DNA of 32,000 bases from Acaryochloris marina MBIC11017 (GCF_000018105.1 NC_009925.1:300001-332000); one strand, 5' to 3'; positions 7,903-23,886 are shown, counted from the first letter of the stretch. Numbers and translations: made by a program. Notes: generated by a model not told the origin, from the sequence alone.

Positions 7903-10077
7903 TTACTTAATGAACAGCATTTCTTGATAGGTGGGCAAGGGCCAGAAACTATCCGCAATTTCACCTTCTAACGCATCTGCATAGGAACGAACCTCATCCA
8001 TGAGGGGACGAATGGTTTTGGCACAATACATCATCTGCTCTTCTGTCGAACTAAAGTCATGGGGTTCCATCGCTGCAGATAATTTGCTAGTGACGGCTGC
8101 CATCGAATTGGTAAGTTCTGCAATTGTCTTGGCACTGTCCTTATGACAATCGATGCCCAGATCCGACAGGCTGGAGATGGTTGAGGACAACTTGGATAAG
8201 TACTCAACCGCTGCTGGATAAATAATGGTTTTGGCCATATTCGTGACCAGCTTTGCTTCCACCTCAATGGAGAGAATGTATTGTTCAGCATAGACTTCAA
8301 AGCGGCTTTCCAACTCAACGGGGGTTAAGACACCCGTTTTTTGGAAGAGGTCTTCAATGAATTCTGCTTTGAGATAGGGTAAAGCATCGGCAGTGGTGGG
8401 TAAGTTGGCGAGTCCCCGCTCTTCAACGGCCATCTTGTGCCATTCGTCGGAATAGCCATTGCCGCCAAAGACGACTGAACCATGGGTTTCCATCACTTCT
8501 TTGAGTACAGTCAAAATGGCTGTATTCAGTTCGAGTCCCTTCGATAACTCACTTTCTAGGCGATTGCCGATCCATTCCAAGGAATCTGCCAGCATGGTAT
8601 TGAGGACAATCAAGGGACCGGAGACCGATTGGCTGGACCCTACCGCTCGAAATTCAAACCGATTGCCCGTAAAAGCGAAGGGAGAGGTCCGGTTCCGATC
8701 GCCTGCGTCTTTGGTCAGGGGAGGCAGGACGTCGATGCCTAAATCCATCACCCCTTTGTGCTTGGAATCCGTGACCGAGCCATTTTTGATTTGCTCAAAG
8801 ACTTCTTCGAGTTGGGTGCCCAAGTAAACGGACATGATTGCTGGGGGCGCTTCATTGGCACCGAGGCGATGGTCGTTGCTAGCGGTTGCGATCGCAGCTC
8901 GCATCAAAGGACCATATTTGTGCACACCCCGAATCACTGCCCCACAGAAGATCAAGAACTGAGCATTCTCATTGGGGGAATCGCCTGGATCTAGCAGGTT
9001 GCCTTGGGTGGCGTTGCCCACGGACCAGTTCACATGCTTACCCGACCCGTTAATCCCCGCAAAGGGCTTTTCGTGGAGCAAGCAAATAAACCCATGTTTT
9101 TTAGCCGTATGCTTAAGGACCGTCATAATCAACTGCTGATGGTCACTAGCCACATTGGCCGCTTCAAAGAAGGGGGCAATTTCAAATTGTCCCGGAGCCA
9201 CCTCGTTATGGCGGGTTTTGGCAGGAATGCCGAGTTTATAGAGGGTTTCCTCCACATCCTGCATAAACACCTGAACCCGTTCTGGAATGGCCCCAAAGTA
9301 ATGATCGTCAAATTCCTGGCCCTTGGCCGGAGCTTTGCCGAATAGGGTGCGCCCCGCTAGCATCAAATCGGGTCTCTGGCTGGCAAAGTTGGAATCGATT
9401 AGGAAATATTCTTGCTCAGCCCCACAGCTAGAGTTGACATGGGCAATCTCCGTATGGCCCAACAACTTCAGAACTTTGTTCGCAGCTTTATCCATGGCGG
9501 CGATGGAGCGCAACAAGGGGACTTTCTTATCTAACGCTTCCCCAGTCCAGGAAACAAATACGGTGGGAATACACAGGGTGGCTCCATTGTCCGTTTCCAT
9601 AATATAGGCGGGACTAGTGACATCCCAGCCCGTATAGCCCCGAGCTTCAAAGGTGTCCCGAATACCACCATTGGGGAAGGAAGACCCATCCGGTTCCCCC
9701 TGGACGAGCACCTTGCCAGAGAATTCTGAAATAACATTGCCATCCCCTTGAACGGAAATAAAGCCATCATGCTTTTCTGCCGTCAGGTTGGTCATGGGAT
9801 AAAACACATGGGCGTAGTAGAGAGCCCCTTTGGCAAGTGCCCAATCTCTCATGGCCGTCGCCACGGCATCCGCCACGGACGGGTCTAGCTTTTCCCCCGT
9901 GGTAATAGTCTTTTTAATCGATTTGAAGACGGCTTTCGGCAGGCTCGCCTGCATTTTACTTAAGTTAAAGACGTTCTCAGCCCAAATTTTCTCCAGGGAT
10001 TCAGGAGGCTTGGGTGGCATCAATTCCCGATTGGTAATTTGGTGAACAGCTAGGACTCGGGCTTCATTTCCACTCAT
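7903..10077 (-). CDS. glnN: glutamine synthetase type III
   Basis: 724 aa, the length and N-terminal/catalytic blocks typical of GSIII (GlnN) as known from cyanobacteria and Bacteroides. Confidence 0.9.
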
Positions 10078-10552
10078 GGTGATTCCTCAGGACTCGAACT
10101 TCCTGATGGTACGCAAATTTATTCCTTAAAATGGATAGAACGGATACCGAAATACAAACTGACCTGTATCTCACCTTCTATAGGGCAGATTAGACCAGTG
10201 AGTAAAAACCTTAAAACTCTTTGAGAGAAGGAATAATGGCGTTACTCAAATCAAAAAAATCCCCTGGTATTAATAGAAAAATAGCTTTAATAAAATTTAA
10301 CCTATCGTTCTCAACACGCTGAGTTTGTAAATTCAGCAACGCCATTCGAAGTTGGAGTAATCCAAGCCTAGACCTGAATTGCTTTCATTACTGACATGTA
10401 ATCCAGACCTCTGCTGTGTTCAAAACTACAGAACGCCAGGATCCATTTCGCTTTTCTATAAATAAATTTTTTTCCCAGTGCAGGGGAATTGCTAAACTGG
10501 ATCTTATTAGGAATCTCTCTCAACAAAATAATTCACTTTAAAATTGAACTTT

Positions 10553-11482
10553 ATGGATATCTCTGCTGCATTACCCACCTTTGTTATCACCCTCCGAGAA
10601 GGCGTTGAAGCAGCTCTAGTGGTGGGTATTGTTCTGGCTTGCTTGCAAAAATCGGGAAAAAGTTATCTCAATACCTGGGTTTACCTGGGAATTTTAGCGG
10701 GTTTAGTGGGGAGTGTACTTACGGGCTTTCTTTTGAACTGGACCCTTAACTGGGTAACCGTGAGTAACGCCACCTTTGAACCCATTATTGAGCCATTACT
10801 GAAAAGTGGCTTATGCCTAACGGCCATTGTCATGTTGAGCTGGATGCTGATCTGGATGACTCAGCAAGCGCGCTCCCTCAAGTCAGAAATCGAAGGCTCA
10901 TTGATTTCCGCGTTGCAAAAGAATGGCAAGTCTGCGGGATGGGGGGTGTTTATGCTGATTTTAATTGCGGTTCTTCGAGAGGGATTTGAAACCGTCCTGT
11001 TTATCTTTACCAATTTGCAGCAAGGAACTGCGGGTAGCGTGGGTGCGATCGCAGGTTTGATCGGAGCCACTGGCATTGGCTTTGGTCTGTTCAAATTCGG
11101 GGTCAGAATTAATATCCGCCGCTTTTTCCAGGTGATGGGGATCTTCTTGCTACTGATTGTCTCTGGGTTGGTCGTTTCCGTTTGCAAGAATCTGGATGCC
11201 GCCGCCTTTGCTTGGGAACAAATGGCCATTTCTCCCACAAATCTATGTTTTGCCCAGGATTCGTGCCTCCTGGGTCCCCAATTGTGGGATACAAGCAGGG
11301 TCCTGTCCGATCATCAATTTCCAGGGTTACTGTTTAAGGCCCTATTGGGTTACCGCGATCAGATTTACTTGGGGCAAGCCGTTGCCTATGGCACGTTCCT
11401 CTTCTCCGTCGGCACCCTGTACCTGAGGAGTCTACAACCTCAAGCGGTGGCTCCTACCCCTTCCAAAACCACTGCTTTATGA
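10553..11482 (+). CDS. FTR1-family high-affinity iron permease
   Basis: Two REXXE motifs (TLREGVEAAL and VLREGFETVL) in a multi-TM protein. ATG at 10553; the track start at 10544 is TTG. Confidence 0.8.
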   Translation: MDISAALPTFVITLREGVEAALVVGIVLACLQKSGKSYLNTWVYLGILAGLVGSVLTGFLLNWTLNWVTVSNATFEPIIEPLLKSGLCLTAIVMLSWMLIWMTQQARSLKSEIEGSLISALQKNGKSAGWGVFMLILIAVLREGFETVLFIFTNLQQGTAGSVGAIAGLIGATGIGFGLFKFGVRINIRRFFQVMGIFLLLIVSGLVVSVCKNLDAAAFAWEQMAISPTNLCFAQDSCLLGPQLWDTSRVLSDHQFPGLLFKALLGYRDQIYLGQAVAYGTFLFSVGTLYLRSLQPQAVAPTPSKTTAL

Positions 11483-12472
11483 AGCCTGACGAACGCTGGC
11501 GAAAGGAGTGTTATGGCACTTAGAGACTATTTCAAACGGCAAGGTTTGGCCAAAGCCAGATTCACTAATACTATGGACTTCGACATGTAAGTGGGGAGCC
11601 GAACTCCAACCCGAATTGCCGCTGTAGCCAATGAGGTCCCCCGTTCTCACCCAATCATTCAACTTGATTGGGATTTTCTTTTTAAAGTTCTGCTGCAAAT
11701 GAATGTAGGCTGAACGGACTCCATTACTATGTTCTAGCCAAATAAAGTTAAACTTCTCCGCATTTCTACGTCTTCCCCCTTTATCGGGATATTTATCTCG
11801 CAAGCCAATCACTCGCCCACCCTGCATGGCATAAACGGGCATGCCAATGGGTACACCAAAGTCATAGGCATATTTCATCCGGCCTTGATGAGTATTGCCT
11901 CGGGTTCCTTGACTGAGAAACCCTTTGCCTTGAAGGGGGTGACAATAGCCTTTCATGGCTGTACTAGGCAGATCCGTCAGGGGATGAGTTCCTCGACGAT
12001 TATCAAACCACTGCTTAACCCCTAACCGATTGAGAAGAAGACTGGGCATGCTAGTGGGGGGATCTGGGAAAGCCCCTCCTTCTGGCATGGATGGAGCGGG
12101 TCGAACTGACAATAGGGAGCAACCCGAGCCTAAACCACAAGCCAACGACAAACTCACTAAGGTGGCCGTTTGCTTCAGCCCCTTAGAAATTGGATTTCGA
12201 ATCGATTGCTTTTGGTGGGTTTTTATAGGAAAATCGCACAAATTCTGTCTATTACTCAATAATTTATAGAAATATTGATAACAATCAGCTTGAAATCCAT
12301 TTTTCTCTTTCTTTATACGAAAAAAATGATTTTCTGGGGAAATATAATCTGGATAACTCTTATTTCTAAGCTTATTTGAGTGAAGAATAATAGAATTGAA
12401 TATTGAGGTTAAAGAGGAAAATTCTCTTACCCAGCAAGGAATCTTCTCAACAGGCATATTACTTGAACACAC
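11477..12472 (-). CDS. M23-family peptidoglycan metalloendopeptidase; start uncertain
   Basis: The C-terminal half has M23 hallmarks (H.G.D, GYSGNSGWSSAPHLHVEVH). There is a hydrophobic or lipobox-like segment, LVSLSLACG. The first about 90 codons are very AT-rich and may not be coding, but the only in-frame ATGs are at the 5' end. Confidence 0.7.
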   Translation of the reverse strand: MCSSNMPVEKIPCWVREFSSLTSIFNSIILHSNKLRNKSYPDYISPENHFFRIKKEKNGFQADCYQYFYKLLSNRQNLCDFPIKTHQKQSIRNPISKGLKQTATLVSLSLACGLGSGCSLLSVRPAPSMPEGGAFPDPPTSMPSLLLNRLGVKQWFDNRRGTHPLTDLPSTAMKGYCHPLQGKGFLSQGTRGNTHQGRMKYAYDFGVPIGMPVYAMQGGRVIGLRDKYPDKGGRRRNAEKFNFIWLEHSNGVRSAYIHLQQNFKKKIPIKLNDWVRTGDLIGYSGNSGWSSAPHLHVEVHSISESGFGQTLPFEIVSKCHNTPFASVRQAS

Positions 12473-13422
12473 TTTTTAGGCTGACCAACTCTAAAATTGA
12501 TCAAGATAATAATGTAGTAGCATTGAATACATTCACGCGAATAAAATTTATTCTTTAAATATTGATTGATTGTTTTTATATTAGGAAATGTTAATCATAT
12601 TTTATTGTTTATAGCCTTGATTCAGGATAGCTATTACACCTTTATAGGAATAAAATAGATTTTGATTTTATCGGTAATTCCTTATTTGATAAGAGGTTGC
12701 TGGTGATTTTGTCCCTGCTCGATCCCTAGAGATTTGGAAAGATTCTGAAACGCATTATCCAGTTTGAGAATCTCTCTCTTAGAATCAAAGTCTGGGATAA
12801 GCAAGAAGCTGTATGGCTTACAGAAAAGGAGGTACAGCCAAGTTCTCCTTGCTTTAGAATTTTTTTTGACAGAGAAAACCTGTTTTGTCCTGAAAGATGA
12901 GAACAGTTTAAAAATCATTAATGCTCTTAAACCCTGCGAAATATAAATTTCTAAATTTGCGATTTTGATTTCAGGGGATTTCGTCTCTAAATACTATAAG
13001 CAAGGAAAAAATATGTCTGGTCCAATTAGACTCTGAGTGATGGCCGAAGAAGAGACTGAATTAGAGGCGAATACCGAAAGTCTCGCTACTCTTTATACTG
13101 GGTCTACTTTTCGCCAAGGCGGTTCCTGAGCTGCCAAGCAGCTATTGTCCATTACCCGAAAGTGAGTATCAGTTGATATTGTGGCGTTCAAGAAATCTGA
13201 TCAGGGTGTGTAAGCCTAACCCTTGTCGTTTTGTGAGTGCGGGAAGACTGAACAGTTGGGAGATAGGGATTTGGCTAGCTGAATGCGCTTAGAAAAGGAT
13301 CTTGGGGCCTTTTCTCATCAGAGGTGCTTTTTTGCAGATGTGGGCTGCTTGATATTGCTTGGGGGAGAAACCCGTTAAAAATATATGCGACATTAGAGAA
13401 CAGTTGGAAGTTCTGCTAGGTA

Positions 13423-15324
13423 ATGGGTAAAAACTGGGCAATTGCCATTGGGATTAACGATTATCAAAATATGCGTCCGCTGAAATTTGCCCGAAAAGAC
13501 GCGGAGGCGGTGTGCCAGTTTTTTCAGGAGTCCTTGCATTTCGATAAGGTAGATTTGTTTGCCAAAGGGGCAGAGCCTGTCCGCTATGAAGATGGTCCTC
13601 CCATTCAAGCTGACCCTACTGTCGGCAATTTAGATACGTTTTTTGATGTCCGGTTTGAACACCCATTTCTAGAGCCAGGAGATAACCTGTGGTTTTTCTT
13701 TGCTGGGCATGGCAAACGCCACAAGGGGCGAGATTATTTGATGCCGATTGATGGCAGCCCCCGTCGTGTTGAAAGGATGGGTATTGCCATTGATTATATT
13801 GCTGAGCGACTGCGACGTAGTGGGGCGGATAATGTGATTTTGATGATTGACGCCTGCCGAGGCGAGGATGATCGGGATGGGGGTGAAGGGGTGGGTCGGC
13901 AACAGCAGAAAGGGATTATTACTCTGTTTGCCTGTAGCCCCAATGAGCTGTCCTATGAAATTGAGGAGATAGAGCAAGGGGCGTTTACCCATACGCTGCT
14001 TGCCGGACTCCAGATCCAGGGGGCGGGTAATTGCGCGACGGTGGAACGTTTGAGCCAATACCTGAGGGCGCAGGTGCCCGAGGTTAACCGTCGGTATAAT
14101 AAACCTGCTCAGACGCCATATACTCGGATAGAACCTGAATCGAAGCTGCATTTTATTTTGCTGCCGGGGCAAGCCACGCTGCAAGATGTAGCCACAATGA
14201 AAATTGATGCCCTGGTAGCTGAGACGGAAAATGATTTGGATGGGGCTGAGCATCTGTGGACTCGGGTGTTAGCAGCTTCTCAGGCAGACTTTCAAGCGAT
14301 TAAGGGATTACAGCGAATTGCGGTCAAACGGGCAACGGGCCAGTCCCTTAGATCGACACCGACTCCAAGTCCAGAGACGCTAACCACTGGGGCTGATAAC
14401 TCTTCCCGAGAACCTGCGAGTAATCTTCCGCCAGAATCGAAGGACAACCTGGCTGACAACAAACCGTCTAAACCTCAACCCTCAAGGGTGACGTTTTCGG
14501 TGGTCAAGGTGAATGCCCAAGGCGAGGTGATTGAGCAGCAAGAGCAACAGACAGAACAAAGCTTGGTAATGTTGCCGGGAGAAGTCCCCCTATCTCTGGT
14601 TCACATTCCCCAGGGGAAGTTTTGGATGGGTGCCCAGAAGAATGAAATAGATGCTCAAGATACTGAATACCCTAGGCATCAGGTATCGGTGCCCTCTTTT
14701 TGGATGGGGCAATATCCGGTAACACAACGACAGTGGCAAGCGATTGCGGGGCTGAGCAAAGTCAAGGTGGATCTGGATCCAGACTGTTCCAATTTCAAAG
14801 GAGAGGCTTTACCTGTGGAGAAGGTGTCTTGGTATCAGGCCGTTGAATTTTGTGAGCGCCTATCACGACATTCCGGCCAAGACTATCGGTTACCGACTGA
14901 GGCAGAGTGGGAATATGCCTGTCGAGCGGGTACCGAAACCCCTTTTTATTGTGGGGAAACTATTACAACAGATCAAGCCAATTACTGTGGTGATGCCACC
15001 TATGGGAACGGTCCAAAAGGGCAGTATAGATCGAAAACCATAGCCGTCGGTTCATCTGCTGCCAATGCCTTTGGCTTATTTGCCATGCATGGCAATGTCT
15101 GGGAATGGTGTCTGGATCATTGGCATGAGGATTATACAAACGCTCCTACCGATGGGACTGCTTGGTTAAGTGAAAATGATAATCATTATCGTCTGCTGCG
15201 GGGCGGTTCCTGGGGCAACTCTCCGAGGAGCTGCCGCTCGGCCTCGCGCCTCAGGCTCAGGCCCGACTCCCAGAACGACTGCGTCGGTTTCCGTGTCGTG
15301 TGTGTTTCGGCGAGGGCCTTCTAG
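13423..15324 (+). CDS. DGR target protein: N-terminal caspase-like (C14) protease domain plus C-terminal FGE-sulfatase/C-type-lectin-fold domain carrying the variable repeat
   Basis: Caspase His/Cys dyad contexts FFFAGHGKRH and LMIDACRGE. The FGE-type domain has IPQGKFWMGA, YPRHQV, EKVSWYQAVEFC, RLPTEAEWEYACRAG, GNVWEWC and LLRGGSW. The last 43 codons overlap the VR. Confidence 0.9.
   Translation: MGKNWAIAIGINDYQNMRPLKFARKDAEAVCQFFQESLHFDKVDLFAKGAEPVRYEDGPPIQADPTVGNLDTFFDVRFEHPFLEPGDNLWFFFAGHGKRHKGRDYLMPIDGSPRRVERMGIAIDYIAERLRRSGADNVILMIDACRGEDDRDGGEGVGRQQQKGIITLFACSPNELSYEIEEIEQGAFTHTLLAGLQIQGAGNCATVERLSQYLRAQVPEVNRRYNKPAQTPYTRIEPESKLHFILLPGQATLQDVATMKIDALVAETENDLDGAEHLWTRVLAASQADFQAIKGLQRIAVKRATGQSLRSTPTPSPETLTTGADNSSREPASNLPPESKDNLADNKPSKPQPSRVTFSVVKVNAQGEVIEQQEQQTEQSLVMLPGEVPLSLVHIPQGKFWMGAQKNEIDAQDTEYPRHQVSVPSFWMGQYPVTQRQWQAIAGLSKVKVDLDPDCSNFKGEALPVEKVSWYQAVEFCERLSRHSGQDYRLPTEAEWEYACRAGTETPFYCGETITTDQANYCGDATYGNGPKGQYRSKTIAVGSSAANAFGLFAMHGNVWEWCLDHWHEDYTNAPTDGTAWLSENDNHYRLLRGGSWGNSPRSCRSASRLRLRPDSQNDCVGFRVVCVSARAF
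15194..15314 (+). repeat. DGR variable repeat (VR)
   Basis: 121 bp aligning without gaps to 17886-18006. 104/121 positions are identical, and all 17 differences fall at template adenines. Confidence 0.9.
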
Positions 15325-15395
15325 CCCTTTACCCTCTTTCCCTTTTGCCCTTTGATCGAATTATTTTTTAAATTATCCTAATAAATAAAATCTTT

Positions 15396-15734
15396 ATGGA
15401 AGATCTACCCGTTATTCAAAAGACATACGATTGTATTCGCTGGTATGTACCGATTCTGAGTAAATTGCCTCGCCATCATCGCTATACCTTGGGAGATCGT
15501 ATGATTTCTAGCTTATATGACCTCCTGGAAGGATTGATTACAGCCCGATATTCCCGCAATAAGCTGCCCCTGCTAGAAACCCTCAATAGCAAGCTAGATA
15601 TTCTGCGGTATCAAACCCGTCTGATGCAAGACTTTGAACTGATATCCGGCCAGCGGTATGAAAATGCCAGCCTCTTCCTCCACGAGATTGGTTTAGACCT
15701 GGGGGGCTGGATTAAGCAACAGCGGAGGCGGTAG
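15396..15734 (+). CDS. avd: four-helix-bundle protein (23S rRNA intervening-sequence protein family), the DGR accessory variability determinant
   Basis: 112 aa with the typical family pattern (W...L.K.P+..+YTLGDR......L.E.LI.A). It ends 4 nt before the RT start and lies between the VR gene and the RT. Confidence 0.8.
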   Translation: MEDLPVIQKTYDCIRWYVPILSKLPRHHRYTLGDRMISSLYDLLEGLITARYSRNKLPLLETLNSKLDILRYQTRLMQDFELISGQRYENASLFLHEIGLDLGGWIKQQRRR

Positions 15735-15936: not shown

Positions 15937-15945
15937 ATCTTTGAG
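15937..15945 (+). repeat. left copy of the 9-bp target-site duplication ATCTTTGAG
   Basis: Identical 9-mer at 17005-17013, directly abutting both IS inverted repeats. Confidence 0.9.
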
Positions 15946-17004
15946 GGCGTTGTTGCATGAATAGGTGCTGCGGATTAGGCGCGGGCTAGAGTTTATGTAC
16001 CACCAAAAACCGCTAGCCCATGAGTTACCAAATCCGCAACTGGTCCGAGTATAACGCTGGTCTCAAACAGCGGGGAAGTGTGACCTTCTGGCTCGAACAA
16101 TCAGCTATCGTTCATTGGCTAGAAACCACACCGAGACAAAAGCGGGGAGCCTCTCTGACCTATAGCGATACAGCAATCTCCACCTTCGAGACCGTCAAAT
16201 GTATCTATGGTTTAGCAGGGCGTCAAACCGAAGGATTTCTAAATTCATTGTTTGAGTTGATGGGAATTGAGCTTCCCGTTTGTGACCACAGCACCGTCTC
16301 TCGGCGGAAAGGTCAGCTATCGATTTCATTGCCCGTTATACCTAAGCAAGGTGCCATTCACGTCGTTATCGATAGCACAGGGGTCAAAGTCTATGGTGAA
16401 GGAGAGTGGAAAACCAGGCAACATGGTGTGAGCAAACGTCGGACGTGGCGTAAACTTCACTTGAGTGTTGATGAGTCCACTGGAGAAATTCTCACGGGTG
16501 TCGTGACAACCAATGACGTTCAGGATGGTGAAGTGTTTGAAGATCTCCTTGAAGGCATCGACGATGAGATTGAACAGGTCTCTGCTGACGGAGCCTATGA
16601 CCAAAGTCATTGCTATGATGCCCTCATGGAGCGCAATGCCACAGCTGCAATTCCCCCAAGGAAGAATGCCAAAATTTGGCAACATGGAAACTGCAATGCT
16701 CCACCCCATCCACGAGATCAAAATCTCAGAGCCATCCGAAAACAGGGACGAAAGAGGTGGAAAAAACAAGCCCACTATCATCGGCGGTCTCTAGCTGAAA
16801 CGACGATGTTTCGCTTCAAAACTATCTTTGGGGGTCAGGTACGTTCCCGTAACTTTGATAATCAAGCCACAGAGTTACTCCTGCAGTGTGCGGCACTCAA
16901 TCGAATGATTCAGATCGCCAAACCCGAGACTGTTTGGGTTGAAGCTTAAGAATAACGAGGAGAGGCAATTCATCTAGCCTTTACGCGATTCATGCAACAA
17001 AGCC
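15946..17004 (+). mobile_element. IS5-family, IS903-group insertion sequence (1059 bp)
   Basis: Terminal inverted repeats are GGCGTTGTTGCATGAAT (15946-15962) and the reverse complement of 16988-17004, GGCTTTGTTGCATGAAT (16/17 identical). They resemble the IS903 GGCTTTGTTG... ends. A 9-bp TSD and a single 309-aa DDE transposase ORF are present. Confidence 0.9.
16020..16949 (+). CDS. IS5/IS903-group DDE transposase
   Basis: The N-terminus (NWSEYNAGLKQRGS.TFW) and the DDE blocks (VIDSTG.KV.GEGEW, SADGAYD, RSLAET.MFRFK) are typical of IS903-like transposases. The ORF is intact. Confidence 0.85.
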   Translation: MSYQIRNWSEYNAGLKQRGSVTFWLEQSAIVHWLETTPRQKRGASLTYSDTAISTFETVKCIYGLAGRQTEGFLNSLFELMGIELPVCDHSTVSRRKGQLSISLPVIPKQGAIHVVIDSTGVKVYGEGEWKTRQHGVSKRRTWRKLHLSVDESTGEILTGVVTTNDVQDGEVFEDLLEGIDDEIEQVSADGAYDQSHCYDALMERNATAAIPPRKNAKIWQHGNCNAPPHPRDQNLRAIRKQGRKRWKKQAHYHRRSLAETTMFRFKTIFGGQVRSRNFDNQATELLLQCAALNRMIQIAKPETVWVEA

Positions 17005-17013
17005 ATCTTTGAG
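17005..17013 (+). repeat. right copy of the 9-bp target-site duplication ATCTTTGAG
   Basis: See 15937-15945. Confidence 0.9.
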
Positions 17014-17885
17014 CCTAAATTGCGGTTGATATCGGCGGCCCCCTATCGGGACCGAGTCGTTCACCATGCCCTTTGCAATGTTATTATTCCGGTGTTTGAA
17101 CCGACGCTTATTAGCGATTCCTATGCCAATCGGTGGGGATATGGCACCCATCGAGCCGTGCAGCGGTTTACGCAGTTTGCTCGCTCCAGCCGATATGTAT
17201 TGCAGTGCGATATTCGCAAATATTTCCCCTCCATTGATCATGGCCTGCTGAAGGCTGGCCTACGCCGCAAAATCAAGTGTCCAAAAACCCTCTGGCTGAT
17301 TGACCAAATCATCGATCACAGCAATCCCCAAGCAACAGTCCTTGAATATTTCCCCGGTGATGATTTACTCACTCCCCTTGCCCATCGCCGAGGGCTACCT
17401 ATTGGCAACCTAACCAGTCAGTTTTTTGCCAATGTCTATCTGAATGGGTTCGATCACTTTGTCAAAGAGCAGTTGAAAACCAAAAAATACGTCAGATATG
17501 TGGATGACTTTGCCCTGTTCGATGACAGCCGTGAACAGTTAGTTCAAGCTCGCCAAGCTATCGAAGCCTATTTAAACCAACTCCGACTCAAAATTCATCC
17601 GATCAAAAGCCAAATCGTCGCCACCCACCATGGCGTCGCTTTTTTGGGATTTCGGATTTTCCCCGCTCATATTCGCGTCCAGAATGCCAATATCCGCAGG
17701 AGCCGTAAAAGATTACGAAAACTACAAAAAGCCTATGCACAAGGTGAAATTAGTGCCACGATGATCGATCAATCGATTCAAAGTTGGGTTGCCCACCTTA
17801 GCCATGCTGATACTTGGCAACTGCGACAACGGATATTTGCTGACCTTGTGTTTGCAAGGCAGTAGAGATGGGCTAGACACAACCG

Positions 17886-18006
17886 TGCTGCGGGGCGGTT
17901 CCTGGAACAACAATCCGAGGAACTGCCGCTCGGCCACGCGCAACAGGAACAAACCCGACAACCAGAACAACAACGTCGGTTTCCGTGTCGTGTGTGTTTC
18001 GGCGAG
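17886..18006 (+). repeat. DGR template repeat (TR)
   Basis: Starts 20 nt after the RT stop. In the target frame it reads [41 protein letters not shown], with many AAC/AAT codons. It is the adenine-bearing partner of the VR. Confidence 0.9.
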
Positions 18007-18109
18007 TACTCTCCGTACCAGAACTGAGTGATGGGAATCCCTCGGGCGTGTGCTAGAAGAGTCCAGGTCTAGTCCAGAGATGCGGGTAACGGCATCCAAA
18101 AATCAAACC

Positions 18110-18155: not shown

Positions 18156-18183
18156 AAGCCAGACAACTTATGTGGGGAATTTT

Positions 18184-18573
18184 ATGTCAGACACAATTGA
18201 ACTTTGGGTGGTAGCGGAAGCCGAATCTGAAGTGGACGTGGACACTGGAAATCGTGGTGATGGAAGTCGTGACGCTGAATTCACCGGACCAAGTTTTGGT
18301 GAAAAGGTAGATCGGGCAACTCAGAAATTGATTTCCCTAACTCGCAAACGAGTACCTGTGGATGTAGCCATGCTCAAAAAACAAATGAATGGCATGATGC
18401 AAGTGGTGGATGAGCTATTTATCCAATCAGAAATTCAAACCAAAATGCAGCTGGATGAAGTAGAGCTAAAAGTTGAAATTAACGCAGAAGGTCAACTTAG
18501 TCTCGTAGGGAATGGCGGTAAGCTGGGGAATACAGGCGGAATCACCTTGAAATTTAGCCGTCCTAAGTCCTAG
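18184..18573 (+). CDS. small acidic protein resembling the Trypco1 ('trypsin co-occurring domain 1', CU044_2847-like) family
   Basis: 129 aa. The C-terminal pattern LDEVELKVEINAEGQLSLVGNGGKLGNTGGITLKFSR resembles the family's conserved (V/I)E(V/F)G.K..AE.G......G.......(V/L)...W tail as I remember it. ATG at 18184. Assignment is from memory only. Confidence 0.4.
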   Translation: MSDTIELWVVAEAESEVDVDTGNRGDGSRDAEFTGPSFGEKVDRATQKLISLTRKRVPVDVAMLKKQMNGMMQVVDELFIQSEIQTKMQLDEVELKVEINAEGQLSLVGNGGKLGNTGGITLKFSRPKS

Positions 18574-21482: not shown

Positions 21483-22098
21483 AGTGCCAATGCCAACCTA
21501 TTTCAAATTCGGTACGAACATTCTAACTGCTTATTCCCCGAATCTCCACCGGATAACCGTAGTATAAAGTTCGGTCCCGTTGAGTTGGACACAGCTTAGG
21601 GGGTTGGCGAAGGCCAATGGTGTAACCAATTTGACAGTTTTCTTAGCCAGAGTATGGTCACACACTCTTCTCTATCAGCAAATGCCTGCAATGCTGCAGG
21701 CATTTGCTCCCTTCCCGCCATAAGATTATGGAACAAGTGAAAATATAAAATTCAGGCTGTTTTGAACTTGTTCAGCCGATAGAAACTGGTTAGCAGCAAA
21801 GAACTCATGGAGCTGTTGTTTGATCTGTGTCAGGGTCGTTCCAAGAGGGAGATGGTGCAGACATCGTAAGCGTAGTAAGTGAATCACATATTCAACCAAG
21901 TTCAACTTGGGAGAGTAGGACGGCAAATATAAAAACTCAACTTGAATCGATTGGGTGAGCCCCATCTGCTCTAGATGGATAGCGAGTTGGGAGCGCATCT
22001 TGCCCTTATGGGTCGGATTGTTATCGAGAATAAGGCACAGTTGAGTGTAGCCCAGCTCAACGCTATCCAGACATAGGTCTGCAAAGTACTCAGAGATA

Positions 22099-23052
22099 TA
22101 GCAGTCGCCATATTGAGAAGGACTTAAACTAGAGAAGTATTTTATTCCTTCTCCTGTGTGATGCCCAAAATTTATAGTTACGACCTACGTTGCAAAGTGA
22201 TAGATGCGATTGAGCTAGATGGGATGCGCCCTTCTGAGGCTAGTGAGCTGTTCGATATCAGTCGTAACACCATTAACCAATGGCAACACCTCAAGGCGGA
22301 AACGGGTGATTTGCATCCCAAGCCAGTCCATCATCCTGGCCATAGCCATAAAATCACTGACTGGGACAAGTTTCGAGCGTTTGCCCACAAGCATCGTCAT
22401 AAAACCCAAGCTCAGATGGCTCAACTATGGGATGGAGAGATTAGTGATCGAACCATCTCAAGAGCCCTCCAGAAAATCGGATTTACTCGAAAAAAAAACA
22501 TATGGGTACCGAGAACGAGATAAGCACAAACGGGCAGCGTTCATCAAACGTCTGAGTACCGTGGACCCAGACGATATCGTCTATGCGGATGAGTCGGGCA
22601 TGGATCATCGAGACGAGTATGACTATGCTTATGGCCCCAAAGGTGAGCGGGTTTATGCTTTGAAGACTGGGCGTAGAAGCGGCCGAGTCAATATGATTGC
22701 GGCGTTGAGAGCAAAGCAGTTGATGGCACCGTTCACGATCGAAGGAGCTTGCAATCGGACTGTGTTTGAACTTTGGCTAGAGCGTTGCTTGATACCCGTG
22801 CTCAAGCCTGGGCAGAAGCTGGTGATAGATAATGCCACTTTTCACAAGGGAGGACAAATACAGGAATTAGTGGAAAAAGCAGGATGTGAGGTTTGGTATT
22901 TACCGCCTTATTCCCCTGACTTGAACAAGATTGAGCGGTCTTGGTCTTGGATTAAAAGTCGCATCCGTCACCAATTAGAACATTTTGGATCTCTCAGAGA
23001 AGCAATGGAACATGTTCTACATCTAGTGTCCTGAATAGAATGGCGACTGCTA
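22099..23052 (+). mobile_element. inner IS630-family element (954 bp, ISY100-like size) nested in the outer IS630 transposase gene
   Basis: The terminal inverted repeats are TAGCAGTCGCCAT (22099-22111) and ATGGCGACTGCTA (23040-23052). The TA duplication (22097-22098 and 23053-54) is typical of the IS630/Tc1-mariner family. Confidence 0.85.
22161..23034 (+). CDS. IS630-family transposase of the inner element; two frames joined at an A9 run (22500-22508)
   Basis: Frame 1 reads MPKIYSYDLR...IGFTRKK. Frame 2 continues with TYGYRERDKHKR...VYADESG...VIDNATFHKG...LPPYSPDLNKIE. Loss of one A, or slippage, gives a single ORF of about 289 aa. Confidence 0.75.
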
Positions 23053-23886
23053 TATCTTCTGTTTTAGCCTGTGGGCTCAGAGCGAAATACTCTTCGCCAC
23101 TGTGGGCATCGACGCACAGTAACCCATTGAGCTTGTTGCGAGCCCGCTCATTACTCTTGACCTGTGGACGAGTGTTGCGTTCTGCCCAGCCATAGAACAA
23201 CCTAGGACGCTCAGACACCGCAAATTCGTCAAAGAACAAGATGCGCTCATCCGATTGTCGTGATTGCAGTTTTTTTAACAGCCGCCACCCACTCTTTCTG
23301 GGCGTTCAGGTCAGCATTCGCATAGTCACGATGGGCGCGTTGGTAAGATAACCCCAACTCTGATAGCAATTCGTAGATACGCGAATCTTTCAGCTGCACC
23401 TCGAAACGCTGCTCAATCACAACGGCTAAAATTGCACCTGTCCACATATTGCGGTCAATACCATAGTCTGTCGGACGTTGCGTCAGAACCATCTCTTTGA
23501 GTTGTTGTTGTTCCTCTGGGCTCAACCGACTAGGTTTTTGATGTCGAATGGATTGGACCAAGCCCTGGAGTCCACCATCGAGATATTTGTCCATCCAACG
23601 CGTTAACGTATCATAGCTACACCCCACTTGTTCGCTCACTTGGGTACGACTGTGTCCTTCATTCAGCAATTTGATCGCGGTCAAGCGCTGTCGAATGTAG
23701 TGTTGTTGATTGCGGTAGTAGAATTTCTGCCACTCATCCGCATCAAAAGGCTTGTCCAGAAAGGCTTGTGTTCGATTCAATGTGACTATTTGCTCTTTTC
23801 CCCATTTTACAGCGGGAAGGGAGTAATCCTAACGGACTTGTCCCGATGCCCCTCAAAGCATCTCTGTTTTCTACAGAGTAGGCCCG

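Follow-up and report, generated by a model that had tools for sequence, protein, structure and literature searches.

The 32,000-nucleotide stretch of the Acaryochloris marina MBIC11017 chromosome analyzed here (NC_009925.1:300001-332000; hereafter the window) contains a chromosomal diversity-generating retroelement (DGR), arranged in the order target gene with its variable repeat (VR), avd, reverse transcriptase (RT) gene, and template repeat (TR). The DGR is complete but for the RT gene, which is split by a copy of the insertion sequence (IS) ISAcma6. The components of the locus are listed below, with positions counted from the first letter of the window.

13423-15324, plus strand: DGR target gene, 633 amino acids (aa), with a caspase-like Peptidase_C14 domain at the N terminus and, at the C terminus, an FGE-sulfatase/CLec-type domain that contains the VR
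15194-15314, plus strand: VR, 121 nt, forming the last 43 codons of the target gene
15313-15328, plus strand: weak 5-bp hairpin (AGGGC-N6-GCCCT) that follows the VR directly on its 3' side, has no counterpart after the TR, and may serve in target recognition
15396-15734, plus strand: avd accessory gene, 112 aa
15739-15945, plus strand: RT 5' fragment, codons 1-69; the open reading frame (ORF) continues to 15960 through IS-derived GVVA and a stop, giving a 73-aa fusion ORF
15937-15945, plus strand: left copy of the target-site duplication, ATCTTTGAG, equal to RT codons 67-69
15946-17004, plus strand: ISAcma6 (IS5 family, IS903 group), 1,059 bp, with left inverted repeat at 15946-15962 and right inverted repeat at 16988-17004
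16020-16949, plus strand: ISAcma6 transposase gene, 309 aa, intact, co-oriented with the RT gene (ABW25403.1)
17005-17013, plus strand: right copy of the target-site duplication, ATCTTTGAG
17014-17865, plus strand: RT 3' fragment, codons 70-352 plus stop, with the whole RVT_1 domain, IGNLTSQ, and YVDD
17886-18006, plus strand: TR, 121 nt with 29 adenines, just downstream of the RT gene

The original prediction had recognized a DGR at this position, and the assignment is borne out by the accessory protein, by the motifs and structural homology of the RT described below, by the pattern of TR/VR mismatches, and by the location of the VR within an FGE/CLec-type domain. The product of avd matches the DivGenRetAVD model NF033474 (1e-39, 135 bits against a cutoff of 80) and the Pfam family bAvd (PF22296, 4.6e-20), and the target protein matches PF00656 (1.8e-21) and PF03781 (3.2e-54, residues 392-626 of 633). 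VR and TR differ at 17 positions, every one of them an adenine in the TR and most of them at codon positions 1 and 2, an outcome with a chance probability of 2e-13 (hypergeometric), while their 3' ends share an identical adenine-poor stretch of about 33 nt. The prediction had given 17 of 28 adenines as diverged; the 17 substitutions stand, and the only slip is numerical, the TR having 29 adenines. Target-recognition elements of a DGR lie 3' of the VR and comprise an IMH and a hairpin; the hairpin seen here beyond the VR has a DNA fold of -4.3 kcal/mol and z = -1.19, which is not significant by itself, and its stem is kept in four Acaryochloris strains. An 80-aa ORF at 17789-18031 overlaps the TR and has been called in related genomes as a 75-aa gene with a weak FGE-sulfatase match; it is most likely an annotation artifact that reflects the copying of the target's C-terminal coding sequence by the TR. 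No second VR, TR, or ISAcma6 copy was found in the 32-kb window.

One close counterpart is the DGR of Bordetella phage BPP-1 (bRT-Avd, structure 8ub7). The A. marina RT is homologous to bRT along almost its entire length, and both systems pair the RT with an Avd, transfer TR sequence to the VR with changes specific to adenines, and have the VR at the C terminus of a CLec-fold domain. Unlike the phage-borne BPP-1 system, the A. marina DGR is chromosomal, has the order target-avd-RT-TR, and carries a broken RT gene, and its target is an intracellular-type caspase fusion, whereas that of BPP-1 is a tail-fiber receptor-binding protein.

The insertion element and the reverse transcriptase it interrupts

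Recomputation reproduced the predicted anatomy of the element at 15946-17004: 1,059 bp, terminal inverted repeats GGCGTTGTTGCATGAAT and GGCTTTGTTGCATGAAT identical at 16 of 17 positions, an intact 309-aa transposase, and a perfect 9-bp duplication at the flanks. The inverted-repeat motif has no further site in the 32-kb window beyond the two element ends, and the 9-mer ATCTTTGAG occurs only twice when both strands of the window are searched; by our calculation, the chance of a given 9-mer exactly recurring at the opposite inverted-repeat boundary is about 4^-9. The transposase scores 330 bits against the NCBIfam IS5-family model NF033579 (cutoff 140; 1.1e-98), matches the Pfam families DDE_Tnp_1_5 (PF13737) and DDE_Tnp_1 (PF01609), and carries the NCBI product name 'IS5-like element ISAcma6 family transposase'.

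Members of the IS903 group have an IS5-family DDE transposase related to that of IS903, a length of about 1.05 kb with a single ORF, a 9-bp duplication, and terminal inverted repeats of about 17 to 18 bp beginning GG(C/T)TTTGTTG, and ISAcma6 has each of these features. As a reference, IS903B was read from plasmid NZ_CP091684.1 (1,057 bp, inverted repeats GGYTTTGTTGAATAAATC). The two elements are nearly equal in length, each has a single transposase ORF, and both make 9-bp duplications; the IS903B inverted repeat GGCTTTGTTGAATAAAT matches the ISAcma6 repeat GGCTTTGTTGCATGAAT at 15 of 17 positions, and the ISAcma6 transposase is 43% identical to annotated IS903B transposases over 98% of its length. 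ISAcma6 differs in its cyanobacterial host, in being a distinct named IS, and in a transposase divergence of 57%. Judged by these sequence features, ISAcma6 belongs to the IS903 group of the IS5 family, as the prediction had it.

The duplicated 9 bp correspond exactly to RT codons 67-69 (I-F-E), and the two RT fragments are in frame with one another, since in silico removal of the IS and one copy of the duplication gives an open 352-aa RT ORF. Pfam RVT_1 covers residues 71-284 of this restored protein (4.3e-24), which also has the DGR-clade motifs LPIGNLTSQ (motif 4, [LIV]GxxxSQ) and YVDD (YxDD). Among solved structures, its best homologue is 8ub7, the RT of the Bordetella phage DGR (E value of 1.6e-53), in an alignment that begins at residue 3; the 5' fragment aligns with residues 4-70 of 8ub7, and the insertion point falls within the conserved F..EPK.RLISA block. 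A scan of genome contigs with the restored RT returned only relatives of at most 72% identity. In GenBank, the 3' fragment is annotated as a 281-aa 'conserved hypothetical protein' that starts at TTG 17020; this ORF (17020-17865) is 100% identical to ABW25404.1, the entry adjacent to the transposase entry ABW25403.1, both encoded on the MBIC11017 chromosome of 6,503,724 bp.

The element is present in several copies within the same genome. The identical transposase sequence appears in MBIC11017 also as ABW27872.1, ABW28845.1, and ABW31058.1, a count of at least three further copies, and in short-read assemblies the multiple copies of ISAcma6 collapse to a 1,059-bp contig. The sister strain MBIC10699 has two copies (L002 and L003) identical to that of the window at 1,059 of 1,059 positions, flanked by the 9-bp duplications GATTGCATC and ATGTGGAAT, which brings to three the ISAcma6 copies at which a 9-bp duplication was seen. 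Identical copies that each have a duplication of their own fit a currently mobile element. One more MBIC10699 copy (L001 2927-3985, within chromosome positions 3101244-3108173) is 99.6% identical to the window's and has no target-site duplication; it sits between a Tn3-transposase fragment and an NB-ARC gene fragment, which suggests that IS copies rearranged with each other or that this one inserted into a different mobile element.

An empty site in MBIC10699 and a variable repeat that differs between the strains

The sister strain provides the comparison that carries our interpretation. At the corresponding locus of MBIC10699 (AP026075.1, locus L008), exactly the same Avd is followed by an uninterrupted 352-aa RT. 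The insertion site is empty and contains a single ATCTTTGAG, and the two pieces of the alignment with MBIC11017 overlap by exactly 9 bp. Once the IS and one duplication copy are excised, the MBIC11017 RT gene is identical to that of MBIC10699 at 1,059 of 1,059 nt, so there has been zero sequence decay of the RT since insertion. On this comparison, the IS reached the MBIC11017 lineage after its split from MBIC10699. The insertion had been called recent on the strength of its perfect duplication and undecayed flanks; that view is supported by the sister's uninterrupted site, by its RT gene, which equals the restored one, and by the 100% identity of the IS to other copies.

The same empty site decides whether the IS within the RT might be an assembly artifact of a repeat-rich genome, a suspicion that a multicopy element prone to collapse in short-read assemblies might invite. 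A misjoin would not yield a perfect 9-bp duplication that abuts both inverted repeats and matches the sister's single-copy empty site, and the deposited annotation, with ABW25403.1 and ABW25404.1 side by side, shows the same structure, which was also noted independently in 2012. We rejected this explanation on the strength of that match between the duplication and the sister's sequence, and we put its probability close to nil.

The remainder of the locus is almost the same in the two strains, with the exception of the VR. Between window positions 11856 and 22802, MBIC11017 and MBIC10699 differ by one 1-bp indel (12860), one single-nucleotide polymorphism (21197), and 14 substitutions. The substitutions all fall within the VR, in the interval 15215-15281 and at TR-adenine positions; the TRs of the two strains are identical. 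Divergence is thus 14 in 121 positions in the VR against 2 in about 9,900 in the flanks (Fisher's exact test, p = 8e-26). Genome-wide average nucleotide identity between the strains is 98.0 (PMC9324425); set against this value, the near-zero divergence of the flanks places the DGR within a segment that the strains have shared for an unusually short time, and even so the VR has been rewritten. Judging from these substitutions, one lineage at least must have undergone mutagenic homing only a very short time ago, in agreement with the predicted activity of the system before the insertion.

Two further features of this alignment deserve mention. When the VRs are compared directly (window 15194-15314, L008 5799-5919), 10 TR-adenine sites are substituted in both strains, and 7 of the 10 carry the same base, where about one third would be expected by chance. 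This excess suggests either partial rewriting of a VR inherited in common or selection that favors certain residues. Upstream of the conserved segment, window positions 9465-11855 show 72 differences from MBIC10699 in 2.4 kb (about 3%), mostly spaced in multiples of three, across the 5' end of GS-III, FTR1, and an M23 peptidase gene. The boundary near 11855 is sharp, divergence falling to about 0.02% over the next 11 kb, and looks like a recombination breakpoint with the DGR locus on its recently shared side.

Taken together, we consider it highly likely that the insertion of ISAcma6 at codons 67-69 of the DGR RT is a recent loss-of-function hit in an IS-rich genome and not a regulatory device. 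Under this model, a copy of ISAcma6 would have inserted at these codons with its usual 9-bp duplication and would thereby have separated the conserved N-terminal 69 residues from the catalytic domains. With the RT lost, TR-derived cDNA would no longer be made, and the VR allele would stay fixed.

Activity of the interrupted system and the state of the variable repeat

The last two steps of this model depend on whether anything of the RT still works. The 281-aa fragment, alone or together with the 73-aa fragment, might be active, or another RT might act in trans, and the locus gives this idea some footing: TR, avd, VR, and target are all intact, and the C-terminal fragment holds the whole RVT_1 domain with IGNLTSQ and YVDD. 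The transposase gene is co-oriented with the RT gene, so that transcripts reading through it could extend into the fragment and the TR. On the other side, the 69 residues lost from the catalytic portion show conservation with Bordetella bRT starting at residue 3, and the insertion interrupts a conserved block. No Shine-Dalgarno-like sequence is visible before TTG 17020, DiGReF lists one RT for A. marina MBIC11017, and the VR is unchanged in the independent sequencing runs described below. We therefore regard continued activity of the DGR as extremely unlikely. From the loss of the conserved N-terminal segment, the lack of any recognizable ribosome-binding site, and DiGReF's listing of one DGR RT for the organism, we infer that neither RT fragment is active and that no TR-derived cDNA is therefore made, and that the MBIC11017 VR allele is by now fixed and alters by ordinary mutation only.

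Contigs from the Logan runs SRR29694083, SRR29694078, and SRR29694082 match the window at 100% identity for as much as 14.8 kb and span the VR to 15311-15314, where they end at sequence shared with the TR. The unchanged VR in these runs would fit a frozen repeat. Cluster look-ups of partial target proteins from Logan contigs gave no match, and the 90% cluster of the target has two members only.

Several points weigh against a reading in which the insertion ended diversification in this lineage. The 281-aa fragment retains all catalytic motifs, and read-through from the co-oriented transposase gene could in principle allow its translation from TTG 17020. The comparison of MBIC11017 with MBIC10699 fits a change of the VR in either lineage, and the constancy of the VR in the three runs is weak evidence that it is frozen. 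Exact look-ups with the 73-aa fusion ORF, the 281-aa fragment, and the 633-aa target all came back without a contig, so that none was recovered across either IS junction, the source chromosome evidently being outside that index.

Recurrence, target biology, and significance

The orthologous DGR is present in other Acaryochloris lineages, where the record of TR-to-VR transfer is consistent and the RT has been hit again. Target orthologues occupy the same position in MBIC10699, CCMEE 5410, and strain 'Moss Beach'. In each of the four strains, the strain's own nonadenine TR variants are mirrored in its own VR, the signature expected of one-way transfer from TR to VR. The confinement of TR/VR mismatches to adenines likewise extends to the three related strains, save for one nonadenine mismatch in CCMEE 5410, the only one among the four. 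The search for an uninterrupted RT in related genomes that the original prediction had proposed found the gene intact in 'Moss Beach' as well as in MBIC10699. In Acaryochloris sp. CCMEE 5410 (AFEJ02000002.1:253522-266205), the orthologous RT is split after codon 218 by a 1,145-bp element (L093 6655-7799) with perfect 20-bp inverted repeats GGGAGCATGTCACCTTTGCA and a 9-bp duplication GATCACTTT, which bears a frameshifted ISKra4-family transposase gene on the opposite strand. Excision of this element gives a 352-aa ORF 92.6% identical to the MBIC11017 protein. The RT-IS fusion product of CCMEE 5410 also occurs on Logan contigs, one of which was seen in at least 20 samples, independent support for this junction.

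The Acaryochloris DGR RT has thus been hit independently at least twice, by ISAcma6 at codons 67-69 and by a defective ISKra4-family element after codon 218. Both IS events left otherwise intact genes, and a third lineage may carry a deletion. Contig 1665 of Logan run SRR17348481 (L108 1-1021) joins the region upstream of the target directly to about codon 135 of the RT, with 2 to 4 bp of microhomology at the junction. This single contig implies a deletion of about 2.8 kb that would have removed the target, avd, and the 5' part of the RT in another Acaryochloris lineage.

The original prediction went beyond a simple knockout and proposed that the IS might control the DGR as an on/off switch. 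For this to hold, ISAcma6 would have to excise precisely at a useful frequency and so toggle the population between diversifying and frozen states, and with a perfect 9-bp duplication and an RT free of decay, a precise excision would indeed give back a working gene. DDE cut-and-paste elements of the IS903 type, however, are not known to leave a resealed donor site, and their precise excision is rare and host mediated. Among alleles with MBIC11017-type flanks, none free of the IS was found, and intact alleles are on record only for MBIC10699 and run DRR374621; the VR is identical in several independent runs; and the unrelated element at another codon of the same gene in CCMEE 5410 has the look of random damage.

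A parallel to such a switch comes from Dore et al. (PNAS 2024; bioRxiv 10.1101/2023.09.22.558884), who describe how IS elements shape and degrade DGR loci and who found, with HiFi reads, that intact and transposon-interrupted RT alleles of DGR3 coexist within single aggregates of Thiohalocapsa PB-PSB1. That system resembles the present one as a chromosomal DGR with a transposon in its RT, and its targets are putative conflict-system sensors. In Thiohalocapsa, both alleles occur within one natural population, whereas in Acaryochloris the two states are found in separate cultured strains and coexistence was not seen. On balance, we judge a reversible switch very unlikely and find the proposed control of DGR activity unsupported; an ordinary insertional knockout describes the locus better.

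If the knockout is not regulatory, its recurrence could still be adaptive. The gene that shares this locus with the DGR bears on that question:

18172-18573, plus strand: Pepco-domain protein (PF24393, 1.7e-28), encoded just beyond the TR on its downstream side and probably the effector that works with the caspase-FGE target

This gene occupies the same position in all four Acaryochloris loci, and the arrangement of target plus Pepco is conserved. In protease-Pepco modules, Pepco is a proteolytically activated pore-forming effector, and FGE-type sensors are among its partners (PMC12642450; bioRxiv 10.1101/2025.11.14.688446); its proteolytic activation and its role in anti-phage defense and cell death come from experiments on other systems (PMC12642450). 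Proteins with caspase or orthocaspase domains have also been found among cyanobacterial DGR targets (Vallota-Eastman et al. 2020, PMC7517822). As in these defense modules, the A. marina locus has a caspase-type protease fused to an FGE-type sensor and adjoining a small Pepco protein; unlike the modules studied so far, it is known from its genes, and Pepco as the substrate of this caspase is suggested by gene neighborhood. The trait that has been frozen is probably, by analogy, the specificity of a sensor that controls a cell-death effector.

Such a target offers a reason for selection to silence the diversifier, since continued diversification of the sensor of a caspase-Pepco suicide module could give rise to self-reactive variants. 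Repeated RT loss would then mean that lineages cycle between diversifying and frozen states at the population level, a proposal we think improbable and have not adopted. A. marina genomes rank with the most IS-rich on record. CCMEE 5410 is an extreme outlier in IS load, and a second chance hit there is plausible: transposase genes make up about 10% of its gene complement, and MBIC11017 contains roughly half that number of IS elements (PMC8763236). By a rough estimate, several hundred recent insertions in an 8-Mb genome would hit a given 1-kb nonessential gene with a probability of a few percent. The recurrence of RT hits is compatible with chance combined with weak selection on the RT.

Elsewhere in the window, the 950 bp upstream of the target gene (12473-13422) have no convincing ORF and contain the indel at 12860, and GC content is 35% over 12001-13000 compared with 48% for the whole window. 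A second IS at 22094-23057 (964 bp, perfect 18-bp terminal inverted repeats) carries IS630-family ORFs, a helix-turn-helix ORF at 22158-22523 and a DDE_3 ORF at 22219-23034, which are probably joined by a frameshift. This IS is present in MBIC10699 too, along with a further DDE_3 fragment at the position matching window coordinates of about 21.7-22.0 kb. The window has no tRNA and no Rfam family at the gathering threshold, and promoter and terminator scans across it returned hits at chance level; none of these scans bears on the knockout.

The insertion in this genome is already known, as is IS damage to DGR loci in general. Schillinger et al. (2012; DiGReF, BMC Genomics 13:430, PMC3521204) reported the same gene in the same organism as an 'RT-ORF split by IS4 element' (Fig. 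4B and Additional file 2) and argued that such inactivations are very recent, since the VR/TR pairs carry adenine mutations only. Their label IS4 follows the old GenBank annotation, whereas the element is placed here in the IS5 family, IS903 group, as ISAcma6. Their work was done without a sister genome. Added here are the uninterrupted site in MBIC10699, the exact match of its RT gene to the restored one, and the 14 VR positions at which the two strains differ, together with the second independent IS knockout in CCMEE 5410 and the caspase-FGE target beside a Pepco effector.

As a discovery, the broken RT therefore carries little weight, having been figured in 2012 and with IS damage to DGR loci described in other systems. 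Its value lies in a natural near-isogenic control pair: MBIC11017, with a broken RT and a presumably fixed VR, and MBIC10699, with an intact RT, an identical TR and avd, and a VR of its own. Outside the VR they differ at 2 positions in about 9.9 kb, and they could be used to measure homing rates and to study a DGR-diversified caspase-FGE sensor and its Pepco partner in a cultivable cyanobacterium.

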